A DNA stretch of 64,000 bases from a virus (Duplodnaviria > Caudoviricetes), in the IMG/VR virus record IMGVR_UViG_3300037067_007848, positions 1 to 64,000 of that record; one strand, given 5' to 3'. The position numbers were made by a program, and so were the translations under genes. This document shows, piece by piece, positions 8,277-49,713 of this stretch. Position 1 is the first letter of the stretch; the number at the start of each line of letters is the position of its first letter. The notes beneath the pieces were generated by a model. That model ran no database searches. It had not been told where the DNA came from and saw nothing but the letters and a program-made list of their open reading frames with translations.

Positions 8277-8495
8277 ACCTTTGGCTTAATGTAGGAGCCT
8301 TGAGACGGGTATATAAATAATTCGGCAATAGCCAGAATGTCTCAAAAGTATTTTGAAAAAATCTATAAATTATAATGTTGTACAAAATATTAAATAAATA
8401 TATTTGGAGAGTATAATGGAGGATTTCTTAGAATATACATTCTTTACGAATACTACATGTTAGGGAGAGTTTACACCATATCAACTAATATTCTC
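8277..8495 (+). ncRNA. Orphan copy of the TnpB-associated omega/tracr-like RNA scaffold with a putative fused guide
   Basis: Collinear similarity to 14186-14370 (tgtagg.gccttg.gacggg, tgtc.caaaagtattttgaaaaaa, aatgttgta, gagagt, ggagg.tttcttagaa) with compensatory stem changes. Confidence 0.75.
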
Positions 8496-8522
8496 TCGTA
8501 TTTTTATAAAAGGAATATCCCT

Positions 8523-8768
8523 ATGAAATTTGAAGATTTAGGATGTATTTTACACTCCAAATGGGTTCCTAGCATTAAATGTTCAAATATTATTATTGGA
8601 ATTTGGGCTGAAGATAATGCTGAATATCAAATAGACGTACAATCTCAACTAAGAGATCAGGTTATATACATACAAAATTGTTTGTACACCTTGTATCAAA
8701 ATTTTAATACCCAAAAACACAATCTAAATATTATAAAGAATAGAATTAATGACATATTTTCAATTTGA
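8523..8768 (+). CDS. Hypothetical protein
   Basis: AAGGA RBS before the ATG at 8523. Confidence 0.55.
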   Translation: MKFEDLGCILHSKWVPSIKCSNIIIGIWAEDNAEYQIDVQSQLRDQVIYIQNCLYTLYQNFNTQKHNLNIIKNRINDIFSI

Positions 8769-10006: not shown

Positions 10007-10091
10007 TGTATGGATGAAGCGTTGGTGTCTTCAGTATGACTGTTAATCATATATGGCTATGCCTACGAAGGTTCGATTCCTTCCCATACAG
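10007..10091 (+). tRNA. tRNA-Asn(GTT) with a long variable arm
   Basis: Acceptor tgtatgg/ccataca; D stem gaag/cttc; anticodon arm tatga-ctGTTaa-tcata; T arm gaagg-ttcgatt-ccttc; no encoded CCA. Confidence 0.85.
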
Positions 10092-12506: not shown

Positions 12507-12725
12507 ATGGATTTTTTTACCCCACAAACAATTTCACTTTTAATTTGGGCACTTGGAGCCACACTGACAATTATTTTGTCCATTATTTCTCTCAAACCGA
12601 GATCGGCCTATTGGCGTGGAATGATTGGTTTGGCCGCATGGATTTTTGGTCTATTGCCAGGAATTATTGGATTATCTTGGTTTTGTGGACAACTTATTCA
12701 CTTTTTAATTTATGGTAATCTTTAG
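12507..12725 (+). CDS. Small membrane protein
   Basis: Two TM helices; RBS. Confidence 0.6.
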   Translation: MDFFTPQTISLLIWALGATLTIILSIISLKPRSAYWRGMIGLAAWIFGLLPGIIGLSWFCGQLIHFLIYGNL

Positions 12726-12779
12726 ATTTTTTTATACTATCTTTATTTAATAACGATAATATTATTTTATAGAATTATT

Positions 12780-14186
12780 ATGTTTGCCCATAAAATTAGA
12801 CTAAAGTTAGATAAACCTACCTCCGATATTATTGATAAGCGAATGAATGTTTGCCGCCTAATTGATAATTTATTTATTGGCGAAATGTTTAGGCGGGTTG
12901 GACTTCGTAATCAGTCTAAAACATGGCAAAATGGAATCGCCCTAAAACATTTGGGTAGGAAGAAAAAAGAGGGTAATTTACTTCTAAGCGAGGCGTCTAA
13001 AAAATACGCTTGCAATATTGGATACTCTTACCTATTAAATGGATTTGGGAATAAAGAATTTGCCCATTCTTGGCATTTACAACATATTGCCAAAACTATT
13101 GTCGGTTTACGTGGGCAAAATATAGTGGGAAATTTCAAAAAATGGCTTATTGACCATAAGGGCAATCCAAAAAAAGGAAAACCGCGATTTAATCGTTTTG
13201 GGGACTGCCGTACAGTTTATGGAAGTTTGGCCACAAGTAAAAAAACATCTGGGAAAATTATTCTATTTAATAAAGATAATGGGCAAATTATTTGGGGCGG
13301 GAGAGGGGTTGACAAAATCTCATTAGACTGTATAATAGACCCTGGAGACAAAAACACCCAACTTGCACTAAATAGCACAATTAAGCGTGTCGGCATAACA
13401 AAAGAGAATAATAAGTATTACGGAATTTTAATTTGTGATACCGATCCATTAGTTAAAGGAAAATATAGTCCAAAAACAAATAATATTGTAAGTTTTGATA
13501 TTGGAATTAAAGACATTGCAATAGTTACGTCAGACGGAAAAACATATAAATTACCACTTTTAGAGGGACTAAAAGATAGTGCCCGCGAATTAAATATTTT
13601 GGCCCGAACAATAGAACGTCGTCGGCGAATGGCCAACCCACAAAATTATAATGAAAACGGCACAATTAAACGTGGTATTAGATTAACATGGAATAAGACT
13701 AATAATTATCTCTCCGCACTTAAAAAATACAAAAATCTCGCCTATAAACAACAACAAACGCGTAAAAATCTTCATAATAATTTAATTCATTGGATGATGG
13801 GGTTGGGCAATACCTTCCATTTTGAAAAAATCGACTATAGAACATGGGCCAAAGGATTAAATAAAACTCAACGGCGTAATATGGGATTATTTTCACCTGG
13901 ATTGTTTATTTCCTTATTAAAATATAATGTGTTGAAATATGGATTAAAAATTGACGAATTTTCCACATATAGCACGGCTTGTAGCAAAACGTGTATTTGT
14001 GGGGAAAAGCATAATAAAAAAGATGATATTTATATATGCCCAGTATGTGGCCTTGCTATAGACCGTGATATAAAGTCGGCCTACCTTGGTTTGTGGGTTG
14101 AAGAAGATAAAATTAATCATCAACGGGCAAAAGATAATTATGACAAATTCAAAGAACGATTAAACAATTTTAGAACTGAGCGATGA
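12780..14186 (+). CDS. tnpB: TnpB/Cas12f-like RNA-guided RuvC endonuclease, CRISPR-associated
   Basis: RuvC-I SFDIGIK, RuvC-II FHFEKID, Zn finger C-ICG...CPVCG, RuvC-III DRDIKSA; all three acidic residues present. Confidence 0.88.
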   Translation: MFAHKIRLKLDKPTSDIIDKRMNVCRLIDNLFIGEMFRRVGLRNQSKTWQNGIALKHLGRKKKEGNLLLSEASKKYACNIGYSYLLNGFGNKEFAHSWHLQHIAKTIVGLRGQNIVGNFKKWLIDHKGNPKKGKPRFNRFGDCRTVYGSLATSKKTSGKIILFNKDNGQIIWGGRGVDKISLDCIIDPGDKNTQLALNSTIKRVGITKENNKYYGILICDTDPLVKGKYSPKTNNIVSFDIGIKDIAIVTSDGKTYKLPLLEGLKDSARELNILARTIERRRRMANPQNYNENGTIKRGIRLTWNKTNNYLSALKKYKNLAYKQQQTRKNLHNNLIHWMMGLGNTFHFEKIDYRTWAKGLNKTQRRNMGLFSPGLFISLLKYNVLKYGLKIDEFSTYSTACSKTCICGEKHNKKDDIYICPVCGLAIDRDIKSAYLGLWVEEDKINHQRAKDNYDKFKERLNNFRTER

Positions 14187-14400
14187 CCTTTGGCGAAAGT
14201 CAAGTGGCCTACTGTAGGGGCCTTGGGACGGGAAAGTAACCTAACAATAGTTGGGTGTCCCAAAAGTATTTTGAAAAAACTTATAATCTGCAATGTTGTA
14301 AAAAGCGATTCAAAAGGTCGTATTTTGAGAGTGCAGAGGAGGGTTTCTTAGAAATATAATTACCCTAAAGTATTACAGCATAACAAGTTACGGCGGATGA
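14186..14400 (+). ncRNA. omegaRNA/tracrRNA-like scaffold with an anti-repeat
   Basis: GAAA-capped hairpin cttTGGC-GAAA-GTCAag; stems ttgggac/gtcccaa and ctgca/tgcag; anti-repeat ttaccctaaa (14360-69) and gcataac (14378-84) complementary to the CRISPR repeat. Confidence 0.75.
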
Positions 14401-14566
14401 GATGTAGTTATGCCGATTTTTAGGGGTAACTACAAGCAAATGCTGGTTCGTAGATATGCTGCCAAAGATGTAGTTATGCCGATTTTTAGGGGTAACTACA
14501 GGCCAAGTGCCTCATAATCGGCAAGCAATTTTGATGTAGTTATGCCGATTTTTCGGGGTAACTACA
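14401..14566 (+). CRISPR. Mini CRISPR array: 3 repeats of GATGTAGTTATGCCGATTTTTAGGGGTAACTACA, 2 spacers
   Basis: 34-nt repeats at 14401, 14467 and 14533 (one mismatch in the last), exact 66-nt period, unrelated 32-nt spacers, palindromic TGTAGTTA/TAACTACA ends. Confidence 0.9.
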
Positions 14567-14620
14567 GTAACTACAGGTAGATTTTATATATCAGATTTGG
14601 ACAAATATATGGACAAATAA

Positions 14621-15007
14621 ATGAAACTAACAAAAGGCACCATTGTAGATAAACCTTGGGGATTTGAGGAAATATATGTTAATTCGGATAAATATTGTGG
14701 AAAACGCCTAGTTATTCAAATTGGTGGGTCGACTTCAATTCACGCCCACATCGTTAAGATGGAGACTTTCACACCAATTTTGGGGAATTTAAATGTTGAT
14801 TTGTATCGACAGATTTGTTTAGATTATGGTGACAAACAAAAAATTTCCACAGAAATAATAAAAACCATTCAATTAAAAACCGGCGAAACATTAACACTAC
14901 CCCCAAAAACCATTCATCGCCTATATCCTGATCAGGGTGATATGGTAGTTTTGCTTGAATTTTCGACTAACCACGACGATAAAGACACAATAAGATATTC
15001 ACAATAA
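14621..15007 (+). CDS. Cupin-domain protein (sugar isomerase-like)
   Basis: KPWGFE...SIHAH..KMETF...IHRL..LLEFS. Confidence 0.8.
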   Translation: MKLTKGTIVDKPWGFEEIYVNSDKYCGKRLVIQIGGSTSIHAHIVKMETFTPILGNLNVDLYRQICLDYGDKQKISTEIIKTIQLKTGETLTLPPKTIHRLYPDQGDMVVLLEFSTNHDDKDTIRYSQ

Positions 15008-15042
15008 GATATTCATCATAAATTATTCATAATAAGGTATTC
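14987..15042 (+). repeat. Four imperfect 14-bp tandem repeats
   Basis: acaataagatattc x2, atcataaattattc, ataataaggtattc. Confidence 0.7.
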
Positions 15043-15045
15043 ATA

Positions 15046-15300
15046 ATGGCCAAAAAACGCGGTCGTCCGCCCAAATACAAACCCGATTTTATACCCACAA
15101 TTCAAGAAAAACAGGACTTTTCATTTAGTCTTGACGCGATAGGATTTTTATCTTCTATTCAATATGCGGTTAGGAAAGATATAGAAGATTTAGCGGTTGA
15201 AATATCGACGGAAAAACTAAACATTGATAAGAAAATTATTGTTAGTGCGGCAAAACAGTTAGGATTGGAAAAATATACACAATTTAAGGAAATACAATGA
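15046..15300 (+). CDS. AT-hook protein with a possible histone fold
   Basis: KKRGRPPK; C-terminal pattern resembles NF-YB/DR1 helices 2-3. Confidence 0.55.
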   Translation: MAKKRGRPPKYKPDFIPTIQEKQDFSFSLDAIGFLSSIQYAVRKDIEDLAVEISTEKLNIDKKIIVSAAKQLGLEKYTQFKEIQ

Positions 15301-44091: not shown

Positions 44092-46251
44092 ATGAATAAA
44101 TATATTGCACTTCATAATCACAGCCATTTTTCTACCCAGGATAGTATAAATCAGCCTAAACATATCATTTCTCGAATGAATTCCCTTGGTATGGATACAA
44201 TAGCTATTTCCGATCATGGCAACCTTGGAGGCGTCGTAACATTTTTAGATGCATTTAAAAAAGAAAATAAAAGGTTGATTGCTGGCTGCGAACTTTACCT
44301 AAGCGAATTTGCCGCAAATATTCGCAATGAAAACAACAGAAAAAATACCCATTTAGTGGTATTGGCCAATGGCGATCAAGGATGGGAAAATTTACTGAAA
44401 ATAGTTTCACAGTCCAATCACCCCGACAATTTTTATTATAAACCCCGCCTTTCTCTTGAGGAAATTGCCCCGTATAGTAAAAATATTATTGCAATTGCGG
44501 GACATTTAGGCTCGTGTTTGGCCCACGAAATAGTCGATAGAGATTGTGTGGTTTTGCCAAATGGGTTAGAAAACGGGATTGTTAAGGCCGAACAATTAAG
44601 GGGGATTTTTGGTGAAAATTTCTACCTTGAATGCCAACTTATTGATGAAAAGTGCCGCCAGTTAGTTGAGGTTATTCGAGAAATTGGGAAAAGGACTGGG
44701 ATACCCTGTGTGGCGACCCCTGACGCCCATTACAGCTTCCCCGAACAAATCCACGATCATCAGGTACTTGTGGCCACCAACCTCCGCAAATCAATCATGG
44801 AGTGTTCTAACCCAGACTTTGCTATGTCAACATTTTTTGCCCCAAACCATTATTATATTCCCTCTTATGACGAATTGTTAAAATGGGGTAATACCGAGGA
44901 AGAATTAGAAAATACGTTGGTAATTGCCGAAAAGTGCAAAAATTATACCACAATATTACGCCAACCAATTCCGCCTCCCTTTCAACTCCCGACAACTTAC
45001 GACAAAACACACGACGACTATTTGCGGGAAAAATGTTGGGCGGCTTTTGATAAAAAATTCGCACATTTAGAAAGTGAAAAATTAAAGATATACCGCGATA
45101 GACTGAGGGACGAATTGGACATTCTGGTTGATAGTAATTTATCCACCTATTTCTTATTAATTGCGGATGTTTTGGATTATGCCCGCGAAATACATTGTCT
45201 GACCTCCCCAGGGCGTGGGTCGGCGGCTGGTAGTTTAGCCTCTTATTTACTCCAAATTACCCAAATTGACCCAATTGAACATGGTTTAATATTTGAACGG
45301 TTTTATAATGCCGCCCGTTGTATGCCCCCCCATGTTGAGTTTGACGAATTCCCCTTTGAACAATTTGATAAAACACCCTATAATGGGGATATTACCGAGT
45401 TTATTCAGCCCGAATGTAAAAAAATAATAGAAAACGCCATATTTAAAGAGGAATTGAAGTTATTGGGCAATCGCCATGTGCGGGCCTATTATTATCACCT
45501 CTTGAAAAATGTCGAATTAGATCAGGCAAATCCCCAAAATAGTTATATTATGTGGGCCTGCGGAAAGGTCGATGAAATAGATATTAAAAATCCGCCCAAA
45601 ATAAATCCTGGTAATGTGTCCATGCCCGATATTGACGTGGATTTTGCGGCAAGTAAACGCGGTAAAATTGTCGAATATATTAAAAATAAATATGGGGAAA
45701 AACATGTCGCCCAATTAGTCACGTTCCAACGAATGAAGGGGCGAGCCGCAATAAAAAATGTTTTACGTGCTCATAATGTTGTGTCGGCCTCTGAAATGAA
45801 CGCGATTACAGAAGACTTCCCAATGGAGGGAAAAATTACCGATGAATTACAGGAAATGAAAGACGAAACTGGCGAATCGTCCATTATTCTTTGGACATTA
45901 CAAAATGATAAAAAGGGTAAATTGCGTAATTGGTGCTATATAGATGAAAATGGCGAGCTAAAAGGGTCATTGGCCAAATATTTTGAGCAGGCGATTAGGC
46001 TAGAGGGTTGTATTTCCGCCCAAAGTAAACATCCTGCGGGGATTGTTATCTCACCCCCCGATATACCCATTGACAAAGTTTGCCCAATGTCGTATGATAG
46101 TAAGGATAAACAGTTAATCGCGGGTTTTGAAATGCGGGATATTGAGAAAATCGGGCTAATTAAATATGACCTTTTATCCCTTTCTCTTCTTGATAAACTG
46201 GCTGGAATTTGTAATATATTAAAATATGGGACAATAATAGGTGAAGAATGA
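44092..46251 (+). CDS. dnaE: DNA polymerase III alpha, piece 1 (PHP domain and palm)
   Basis: LHNHSHFS, SDHG, GRGSAAGS, FERF, PDIDVDF, HPAG, GLIKYDLL. Confidence 0.93.
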   Translation: MNKYIALHNHSHFSTQDSINQPKHIISRMNSLGMDTIAISDHGNLGGVVTFLDAFKKENKRLIAGCELYLSEFAANIRNENNRKNTHLVVLANGDQGWENLLKIVSQSNHPDNFYYKPRLSLEEIAPYSKNIIAIAGHLGSCLAHEIVDRDCVVLPNGLENGIVKAEQLRGIFGENFYLECQLIDEKCRQLVEVIREIGKRTGIPCVATPDAHYSFPEQIHDHQVLVATNLRKSIMECSNPDFAMSTFFAPNHYYIPSYDELLKWGNTEEELENTLVIAEKCKNYTTILRQPIPPPFQLPTTYDKTHDDYLREKCWAAFDKKFAHLESEKLKIYRDRLRDELDILVDSNLSTYFLLIADVLDYAREIHCLTSPGRGSAAGSLASYLLQITQIDPIEHGLIFERFYNAARCMPPHVEFDEFPFEQFDKTPYNGDITEFIQPECKKIIENAIFKEELKLLGNRHVRAYYYHLLKNVELDQANPQNSYIMWACGKVDEIDIKNPPKINPGNVSMPDIDVDFAASKRGKIVEYIKNKYGEKHVAQLVTFQRMKGRAAIKNVLRAHNVVSASEMNAITEDFPMEGKITDELQEMKDETGESSIILWTLQNDKKGKLRNWCYIDENGELKGSLAKYFEQAIRLEGCISAQSKHPAGIVISPPDIPIDKVCPMSYDSKDKQLIAGFEMRDIEKIGLIKYDLLSLSLLDKLAGICNILKYGTIIGEE

Positions 46252-48450: not shown

Positions 48451-49713
48451 ATGGAATATCATCAGTTTTCGTGTGGTTGTAAATTCCCAATTCAAGGTTA
48501 TTTTGAGGATGGAAAACCAAAAATAGATTTATCCCCAACAATAGAAAATATTCCCCTAGATTGTTCACGAACTTGGGAAATGCTTGGGAGAGGCGACACC
48601 TTTGGCGTTTTTCAACTAGAAAGTAATCAATGTGCGGGATTTTCTAAAAAGCTAAAACCATCTACCTTGGGACATCTTGCCGCCCTTGTAAGTATTATTC
48701 GCCCTGGTGTTATTGAATGTATTGAAGACGGTAAGAGTATGACCAACCATTATATTGACCGTAAAAATGGTGTTGAGCCAGTCAAATATTTCCACCCCGC
48801 CCTTGAAAATTCCCTCAAAAATACCTACGGCATTGCAATTTATCAGGAAAATGTTTTACAAATTTCGCGGGATATTGCGGGATTTAGTTTACAAGAGGCA
48901 GATTTATTACGTAAATGTGTTGATCCAAATTGTACAGTAGAATTAGAAAATGGCGAAATTACCAAAATTGGAGATGTGAATATTGGGCAAAAAATAAAAA
49001 CATTAGATGGCTATACTACAATATTAGATAAATTTAACAATGGTGAACAATTAGTATATAAATTTATATTTAATAATGGGCAATTTATCGTATGTACTGA
49101 TACACATAAATTATTATGTGAAGATGGCATTTGTTATTCGGCATACGATATTTTTACAAAACGAATTGGCGTTCAATCTATTAATGGAATAATATTTATA
49201 GAAAAAATTACCAAGGCCGAAATTATTGAAACAATTGATATATACGTGGATCATCCAAAGAATATTTACTATTTAAATGGAATTGCAAGTCATAACAGCA
49301 TTGGGAAAAAGTCTACGGAATTAATGGCCAAATGCCGAACAATGTTCATAGATGGATGTAAAAAACAAGGCATTGTAAATGAGGCAGAGGCAACACAATT
49401 ATTTGATTGGATCTCAGTCGGGCAAAGATACGCCTTCAACAAATGCGTTTCATTGGATACAATAGTAGAGACTAAATATGAAAATAAAACTATTGATAAT
49501 ATTGAAATAGGGGATGTAATAAAAACAAAAAATAATGAATATACAACCATTTTAGATAAAATAAACACTGGAATACAAGATATATATGAAGTAGAATTAG
49601 AAAATGGTAAAAAAATAAAATGTACATTAGCTCATAAATTTGTTTGTTCGGATAATAAATTATATACTTTACAGGAAATATTTGATAGTAATTACGAAAT
49701 AATATGTGAATGA
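48451..49713 (+). CDS. dnaE: DNA polymerase III alpha, piece 2, with a cis mini-intein and a terminal N-intein
   Basis: GVFQLES, RPG, YQE, EADLLRK|intein|SIGKK, YAFNK|CVSLDT...stop. Confidence 0.92.
   Translation: MEYHQFSCGCKFPIQGYFEDGKPKIDLSPTIENIPLDCSRTWEMLGRGDTFGVFQLESNQCAGFSKKLKPSTLGHLAALVSIIRPGVIECIEDGKSMTNHYIDRKNGVEPVKYFHPALENSLKNTYGIAIYQENVLQISRDIAGFSLQEADLLRKCVDPNCTVELENGEITKIGDVNIGQKIKTLDGYTTILDKFNNGEQLVYKFIFNNGQFIVCTDTHKLLCEDGICYSAYDIFTKRIGVQSINGIIFIEKITKAEIIETIDIYVDHPKNIYYLNGIASHNSIGKKSTELMAKCRTMFIDGCKKQGIVNEAEATQLFDWISVGQRYAFNKCVSLDTIVETKYENKTIDNIEIGDVIKTKNNEYTTILDKINTGIQDIYEVELENGKKIKCTLAHKFVCSDNKLYTLQEIFDSNYEIICE
48916..49296 (+). mobile_element. 127-aa mini-intein
   Basis: CVDPN...CTDTHKL...NGIASHN|S. 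Confidence 0.9.
49444..49710 (+). mobile_element. Split intein, N-half (89 aa)
   Basis: CVSLDT...KCTLAHKF then a stop codon. Confidence 0.9.

Follow-up and report, generated by a model that had tools for sequence, protein, structure and literature searches.

We analysed a 64,000-nucleotide (nt) stretch of phage DNA, hereafter the window, which is the first 64 kb of the 121,008-base IMG/VR virus record IMGVR_UViG_3300037067_007848 (Duplodnaviria; Caudoviricetes), a record estimated to be 80% complete. Our subject is a locus at positions 12780-14576, where the gene for a small TnpB-like protein, P0001, is followed by a structured non-coding region and a short array of clustered regularly interspaced short palindromic repeats (CRISPR). 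We propose, with a probability of about 0.7, that this locus is a phage-borne, TnpB-derived, CRISPR-associated miniature nuclease, TranC-like and type V-U-like, which would target DNA by means of its spacers. TranC are transposon-CRISPR intermediates with a split omega RNA (Jin et al., Cell 188:6283, 2025, doi 10.1016/j.cell.2025.09.004, as summarised in PMC13565253, PMC13639567 and bioRxiv 10.1101/2025.09.28.678669). The locus is probably a working system of this type. Its kind has already been described, and it is a divergent member on a long branch, not a new type of system. The features on which the argument depends are listed below; loci of relatives are designated by L numbers, and R1 is the covariance model described further on.

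12780-14186, + strand: effector gene P0001, encoding a predicted 468-amino-acid (aa) RNA-guided nuclease of the TnpB fold (open reading frame, Pfam and NCBIfam matches, alignment, AlphaFold model).
14187-14399, + strand: putative guide-RNA scaffold, 213 nt, resembling a tracrRNA (trans-activating CRISPR RNA) or an omega RNA; its core is conserved in the orphan copy as well as in the L007, L012, L025, L097, L094 and L071 scaffolds.
14327-14436, + strand: 110-nt 3' module composed of the scaffold end, the anti-repeat, a linker of ~15 nt and repeat 1; 87.5 bits with R1.
14361-14386, + strand: anti-repeat, with block 1 (14361-14370) pairing with the 3' box of the repeat and block 2 (14380-14386) with its 5' half.
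14401-14436, + strand: repeat 1, contiguous with the scaffold.
14437-14466, + strand: spacer 1, 30 nt, boundaries uncertain by 1-2 nt.
14467-14502, + strand: repeat 2, its core identical to repeat 1.
14503-14532, + strand: spacer 2, 30 nt.
14533-14568, + strand: repeat 3, a degenerate terminal repeat with A>C at 14554.
14558-14576, + strand: 9-bp tandem duplication of the 3' end of the repeat, at the trailer end of the array.
8282-8524, + strand: second, nuclease-less copy of the scaffold, the orphan copy (sequence match, R1 model).

The catalytic and zinc-binding residues of P0001 are in place. Its RuvC triad, D240/E349/D430, aligns with the catalytic motifs of ISDra2 TnpB, and its zinc ribbon follows the pattern CxC...CxxC (C405/C407/C420/C423). 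D240, E349 and R429 were invariant in an alignment of 39 sequences (P0001 and 38 full-length relatives, 24-30% identity), where D430 and the four cysteines were at least 90% conserved. The zinc-ribbon domain was recognized by Pfam Cas12f1-like_TNB (PF07282) at 33.3 bits, above the cut-off of 26.3. The AlphaFold model of the protein (predicted local distance difference test score, pLDDT, 89.3) was closest among PDB folds to ISDra2 TnpB (Z 19.7, 343 residues aligned) and ISFba1 TnpB (Z 18.6), followed by AsCas12f (Z 17.5), Fanzor2 (Z 16.8) and then Cas12p, Cas12m and LaTranC (Z 13.7). No NCBIfam Cas12f model, Cas12f2 included, was reached by P0001 at E 0.001, and the matches from PADLOC Cas12f models were weak and partial (E 1.3e-11). 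The type V-U2 model NF038192 (V_cas_c2c8) likewise gave no match to P0001 at E 0.001; 18 of 39 relatives matched it, with a best E of 3.7e-15. Judged from the model, P0001 has the fold of a TnpB nuclease, keeps its active site intact and is not closely allied to any solved Cas12 subtype, and it is most likely an active RuvC nuclease. The first-pass annotation had described a 468-aa TnpB-like protein with a D-E-D RuvC triad and a zinc finger, and both the residues and the fold bear this out. Among 1.8 billion cluster representatives, P0002 (81-83% identity) was the sole close relative, the next match standing at 32-33%; searches with P0001 of IMG/VR and of JGI metagenome contigs for close relatives yielded nothing useful.

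The array that follows starts 214 nt past the stop codon of the nuclease gene. Its three 36-nt repeats begin at 14400/14401, 14466/14467 and 14532/14533, giving a period of exactly 66 nt, and its two spacers are unrelated to each other; the regular period and the unrelated spacers are as first described, with a repeat length of 36 nt. The A>C change in repeat 3 falls within the box that pairs with block 1 of the anti-repeat. The repeat has no other occurrence in the genome, and an exact search for it found no match in 185,579 species-representative genomes or in IMG/VR. Comparison of the spacers with the phage's own genome gave only chance matches of 11-14 nt, none of the 22-mers of either spacer occurred exactly in IMG/VR, and GenBank phages gave only matches with E 0.9-3. 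Both spacers have a GC content of 43% compared with 35% for the genome, which is not significant, as ~26% of 30-mers reach that value.

The region between gene and array had been described as about 215 nt of structured non-coding sequence. It measures 213 nt, and folding of the scaffold together with repeat 1 gave z = -3.77 against dinucleotide shuffles. The complementary blocks noted earlier between scaffold and repeat were located at 14361-14370 and 14380-14386, and the two-block duplex of anti-repeat and repeat co-folds at -19.3 kcal/mol. Because this duplex energy is unremarkable, our case for the anti-repeat rests on covariation and fixed position and not on energy. Rfam had no match on the scaffold or the array.

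The covariance model R1 was built from six sequences and two hand-drawn helices, one joining block 1 to the 3' box of the repeat and the other joining block 2 to its 5' half. It detects the 110-nt module in ~20 loci on which it was not trained (E 7e-5 to 0.35), always on the strand of the gene and with its end precisely on the first repeat, at the array's 5' edge. Measured from a conserved six-base motif through repeat 1, the module spans 109-110 nt in the window and in four Bacteroidales loci, and the anti-repeat keeps a position 13-27 nt before repeat 1. Across 28 distinct module sequences, 76.5% of cells were paired, compared with 59.4 ± 1.8% in shuffled sets (0 of 500 reached the observed value), and sliding the helix partner lowered pairing to 33-43%. 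The covariation score was 0.434, compared with 0.184 for shuffled and 0.06-0.14 for slid alignments. Helix 1, that of the anti-repeat, was 84.8% paired, and in six of its seven pairs both sides change, as in one that is GC in 16 sequences, CG in 10 and UA in 2. Scaffold and repeat thus covary, and therefore selection acts on the RNA. The proposal that scaffold and repeat 1 form a hairpin in cis is in this way backed by related loci. Two other alignments were set aside as tests of structure: the RNAalifold consensus on a MAFFT alignment (A3) was uninformative, and in a MAFFT-only alignment (A7) a slide of -3 columns did nearly as well as the proposed register.

Parts of the scaffold sequence reappear 3' of related genes in the phage contigs L007, L012 and L025 and in the Bacteroidales loci L097, L094 and L071, beside proteins that are only 22-30% identical. 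Arrays lie 3' of the gene in the viral homologs L007 (three repeats), L012 (two), L013 (five, with a TnpA), L009 and L017/L018. A marine viral contig of 108-111 kb (L025/L026/L028) carries seven repeats at a period of 66 nt, and its 36-nt repeat is identical to that of the window at 21 of 36 positions. In Bacteroidales/Prevotella, arrays with a period of 65-66 nt were found in 23 of 80 cellular loci, with 41 repeats in L078; the L097 repeat, counted by hand, matches the window repeat at 25 of 36 positions. No two of the 100 spacers read from 17 loci of relatives are the same, 98 measure 29-30 nt, and L094 and L099, whose proteins are near-identical, have no spacer in common. No cas1 or cas2 was found within 3 kb of the relatives' loci that were checked. 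Contigs L024, L027 and L023 end 220-340 nt past the gene and were counted neither for nor against arrays. The first-pass annotation had named homologs that never carry arrays, or spacers that do not vary, as the finding that would speak against it; at the level of the family we found the opposite, since arrays are present and their spacers vary.

Several of these relatives deserve description in their own right. L068-L099, from Prevotella/Bacteroidales metagenome-assembled genomes (MAGs) of rumen and gut, form a large clade of 525-608-aa TnpB-like proteins beside arrays of 36-nt repeats; the 110-nt module stands at the leader end of the array, and the order is either scaffold-array-gene or gene-scaffold-array. 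No named Cas12 model matched the L068-L099 proteins, and PDB sequence searches with Bacteroidota and Bacillota relatives gave no match. The viral contig L013 (3585-5900) holds an intact-looking IS605 pair of Y1 TnpA and TnpB with five 36-nt repeats at a period of 66 nt, 32 nt past the stop codon; its close relative L016 has the TnpA and no clear array.

The locus could instead be a stranded, decaying remnant of an IS200/IS605-type TnpB that has lost its tnpA, with repeats that are local duplications of the omega-RNA 3' end and flanking DNA, and with no present role as guides, apart at most from the selfish retention that TnpB typically shows. The family history is congenial to this account. 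A Y1 TnpA lies directly upstream of the nuclease gene in the distant relatives L001, L013 and L016 (archaeal and viral contigs), and cellular relatives are multi-copy in MAGs of Nitrospirota, Chloroflexia and Clostridia, so the wider family is one of classical mobile TnpBs; PHROGs labels P0001 a transposase, the orphan scaffold copy resembles a leftover right end, and the array is tiny with a degenerate last repeat. Decay, however, is difficult to reconcile with the intact catalytic and zinc residues, with a reading frame, scaffold and repeat 1 that are letter-identical in a second, independent sample from a landfill, or with an exact 66-nt period and unrelated 30-nt spacers that match the ruler-like arrays of relatives. 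It also leaves the covariation of scaffold and repeat, which requires selection on the RNA, without an explanation. We therefore consider a remnant unlikely.

Alternatively, P0001 may not serve the array at all. The array would then be a mini-array or repeat decoy of the phage, imitating a host CRISPR with its 36-nt repeats and 30-nt spacers, and would borrow host Cas proteins or act as an RNA anti-CRISPR. The combination of a 36-nt repeat and a 30-nt spacer is common among Bacteroidota arrays of several systems, and the phage has no adaptation genes of its own. The arrays beside L007, L012 and L021, moreover, look type I-E-like in length and period. However, a mimic is poorly matched by a repeat that the exact search found in none of the species-representative genomes nor in IMG/VR. 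The repeat also continues physically from a scaffold whose homologs accompany related TnpB-like genes, and repeat and anti-repeat covary; because of this continuity and covariation, we assign the array to the RNA and protein family of P0001 and not to an unrelated Cas effector, and give the decoy little credence. As a separate observation on the arrays just named (L021, 455-655; L007, 5571-5730; L012, 5581-5672), their repeats are ~29-30 nt (~36 nt in L007) at a period of 61-62 nt and contain an internal G+C hairpin, and that of L021 lies upstream of the gene.

The orphan copy is the sole paralogue of the scaffold in the genome, with 73% identity between 8282-8437 and 14205-14358 (E 1.5e-16), and its 3' module (8407-8524) scores 69.4 bits with R1. 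Its anti-repeat and repeat-like segments differ from those of the array-linked copy yet remain complementary to each other. Since it runs into the start of the next gene, we take it to be a fused, single-guide form. The repeat-like end (8489-8530 region) overlaps a stretch resembling a ribosome-binding site and an ATG at 8524, and because of this overlap its built-in guide would have the same sequence as the 5' end of the small gene that comes next. The 103-aa open reading frame listed from 8457 probably starts at 8524 instead.

This arrangement is what an RNA-guided regulator, similar to TldR or Cas12m, might use: it would bind wherever DNA matches a spacer or the orphan guide and shut down transcription, one example being the gene after the orphan scaffold, whose 5' end the built-in guide matches. 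TnpB-derived repressors are known (PMC13565253). These known derivatives have lost RuvC residues (PMC13565253), whereas P0001 conserves all three together with its zinc ribbon, which makes a regulatory role highly improbable. The orphan copy also admits a more tentative extension of the nuclease reading, which we regard as doubtful though worth stating. The P0001 lineage would be a separate phage-resident branch of TnpB in which one protein uses both fused omega-type guides, namely the scaffold-repeat 1-spacer 1 unit and the stand-alone copy at 8282-8524, and trans-paired CRISPR RNAs (crRNAs) from the rest of the array, with a repeat kept compatible with Bacteroidota-type host arrays so that the adaptation machinery of the host could serve it. 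If true, this would be a living example, in an unsampled clade, of the fused-to-split step that the TranC work has inferred.

We examined the relationships of the family with quick maximum-likelihood trees. A Bacteroidota clade with arrays, together with some Bacillota, split from a second group that holds P0001/P0002, P0040, P0025/P0030, IS-type TnpBs and most phage copies (Shimodaira-Hasegawa-like approximate likelihood ratio test, SH-aLRT, 100). As the same RNA module occurs on either side of this deepest division, scaffold and array have long been linked or the link was transferred, and it is not nascent in the phage of the window. The first-pass annotation had called the system nascent, and this does not hold: the scaffold-array module is common to a large Bacteroidota clade with proteins only 22-27% identical, and the association is, judged from these sequences, old and widespread. 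Nor is the system possibly undescribed, as was suggested, since TranC with a split omega RNA has been published (PMC13639567, PMC13565253) and a phage-borne TranC9 has been reported (bioRxiv 10.64898/2026.03.27.714800).

The phage context is upheld by replication and recombination genes in the window, namely DNA polymerase pieces, NrdD, a UvsX-like recombinase, a DnaB-like helicase and a primase, which lie on one strand; open reading frames of the window are almost all on the + strand. The element is thus phage-borne, as proposed. Neither Y1 TnpA (PF01797) nor Cas1 (PF01867) had a match in the whole 121,008-base record, and the positive controls worked, so the reported lack of tnpA and cas1 in the window extends to the entire record.

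The locus was also traced in sequencing runs. The nuclease reading frame, scaffold and repeat 1 were letter-identical in a groundwater run, possibly the source, and an independent landfill run. Contigs of both break within the array, as they do in three samples altogether. In a third run (X3), a relative that is ~17% diverged tracks the window to the final base of repeat 1 and then departs. A contig of a related phage in the same landfill run seems to join ~12670 to 14619, that is, without the whole cassette, and from this apparent junction the nuclease-array cassette may be an accessory insertion. One landfill contig (X2) has 84 unaligned letters directly before spacer 1, which hint at, and are compatible with, an additional repeat-spacer unit. 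The departure after repeat 1 in X3 and the 84 letters in X2 are hints only of spacer variation in P0001's own lineage.

Several points weigh against the reading of the locus as a spacer-guided nuclease system. The array has only three repeats, the last of them degenerate, and a protospacer was found for neither spacer in the phage's own genome, IMG/VR or GenBank phages, so that targeting is unproven. Spacer turnover was seen in distant relatives, and for the exact P0001/P0002 lineage there are only the hints given above. P0001 scored 75.9 bits with NCBIfam guided_TnpB (NF040570; E 3.5e-21), below the curated cut-off of 100 bits. The duplex at -19.3 kcal/mol is modest (local empirical p ~0.03) and not among the best duplexes genome-wide; the energy test over nine loci gave a Fisher p of 0.023, with several relatives not significant. 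Helix 2 is only 62% paired, and the covariation alignment was fitted to the R1 model and is hence biased towards structure. A consensus promoter and terminator scan found promoter-like sites no more frequent than in shuffles, and no RNA run is listed as holding the locus. Finally, P0001 lies on a long branch that groups with a second long one, P0040; the placement of P0001 in the tree is uncertain, this grouping may be an artefact, and we for that reason claim no origin or donor for it.

We propose the following mechanism for the favored reading, that of a TranC-like nuclease. P0001 would be loaded with the scaffold RNA of ~200 nt, presumably transcribed just downstream of its gene. Since the scaffold ends, in the DNA, in the anti-repeat, a short linker and repeat 1, the first unit can act as a single guide, and scaffold, repeat 1 and spacer 1 may serve together as a natural single-guide RNA of the omega-RNA type. 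The later repeat-spacer units, after putative RNA processing, would pair through repeats 2 and 3 in trans with the anti-repeat of a scaffold molecule in the manner of crRNA and tracrRNA. DNA matching a spacer would then be cut, the most plausible targets being rival mobile elements or phages in the same host. As the phage is without adaptation genes, new spacers would have to come from the Cas1-Cas2 of a host or from recombination. CauTranC9 and Cas12r, both compared below, suggest by analogy that the system may play a role in conflict between mobile elements.

Other features of the window lie apart from the locus. A tRNA gene was identified at 10007-10091 (+ strand; Rfam 33.3 bits, gathering score 29). 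A tandem repeat at 42-376 (69 nt, 4.9 copies, 87% matches) is contained in the window's first open frame, and a 14-nt tandem repeat of 4.2 copies (14989-15047) is situated between a cupin-like gene (14621-15007) and a small AT-hook reading frame (15046-15300). The DNA polymerase matches (phrog_405) are divided over two reading frames, 44092-46251 and 48451-49713, ~2.2 kb apart.

The locus enlarges the still young TranC class by a phage-borne effector that is very compact (468 aa) and apparently intact, with a guide architecture of scaffold, two-block anti-repeat and 36-nt repeat that is defined by covariation. The large set of Bacteroidales loci with the same RNA module provides comparative material for the design of single-guide RNAs and for the question of how fused guides became split. 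As a fused orphan and an array-linked scaffold are present in one genome, that question can be put to a single protein. The current picture of type V origins is unchanged, and the locus fits it.

The locus shows every TranC feature that was checked; the likeness is to the TranC clades as described, and the sole solved member, LaTranC, is distant. TranC proteins are summarised as derived from IS605/IS607-type TnpB lineages and as ranging from 300 to 600 aa (size from bioRxiv 10.1101/2025.09.28.678669). Similarly, a TnpB-derived protein of 468 aa here adjoins a CRISPR array, with no cas1 in the record, and the guide RNA is reorganised into a scaffold bearing an anti-repeat (helix 84.8% paired) and repeat-spacer units. 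The scaffold at this locus, however, is joined physically to repeat 1, and 6 kb away there is another fused copy on its own. The family profile matches LaTranC (9jfo/9jfq) only over the RuvC half (E 1.5e-21), and LaTranC is structurally further from P0001 (Z 13.7) than is plain TnpB (Z 19.7). A 2026 preprint describes further TranC clades, among them the phage-borne TranC9; it gives array sizes of 3-20 repeats, each of 32-38 bp, and reports that accessory cas genes are lacking (bioRxiv 10.64898/2026.03.27.714800). CauTranC9, of clade 9, has five repeats of 38 bp, approximately the length of TnpB without expansions, spacers that match phages, and a proposed phage-against-phage role (same preprint). 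Our locus is likewise encoded by Caudoviricetes, near TnpB in size and fold, and equipped with a small array and no cas accessory genes. Compared by description only, it differs in its 36-nt repeats, in a 468-aa protein with a longer helical REC region, and in that no target was found.

The IS200/IS605 TnpBs ISDra2 and ISFba1 (PDB 8h1j, 8exa, 8iaz) gave the best folds (Z 18.6-19.7 over residues 1-444) and share with the locus the RuvC triad, the zinc ribbon, a guide scaffold at and beyond the 3' end of the gene and a guide at the scaffold's 3' end. They differ in that the phage record has no TnpA, identity is 16-17%, the NCBIfam TnpB score is below its cut-off, and what comes after the scaffold is an array of repeats and spacers in place of a single transposon end. 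With Cas12f/Cas14 (type V-F) and the V-U effectors (U2 = C2c8, U4), the locus has in common a miniature RuvC effector, a tracrRNA-like scaffold and repeats of 36-37 nt, and relatives match Cas12u2 (P0040 at 9.5e-26). P0001 itself, in contrast, had no C2c8 or Cas12f2 match in NCBIfam at E 0.001, its fold match to AsCas12f (Z 17.5) ranks below TnpB, and the cas1/cas2/cas4 module of Cas12f systems is lacking. Phage type V systems, namely Cas12j/CasPhi, CasLambda and the Cas12r of Thermus Lalka phages (bioRxiv 10.64898/2026.04.20.719267), are similar as single-effector phage loci without adaptation genes for which a role in mobile-element conflict is proposed. Unlike P0001, these effectors are much larger, and they are more distant in fold (CasPhi Z 11.7-12.2, CasLambda Z 10.6-10.9). 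CasPhi and CasLambda need no tracrRNA, whereas the locus described here carries a scaffold with an anti-repeat beside its array.

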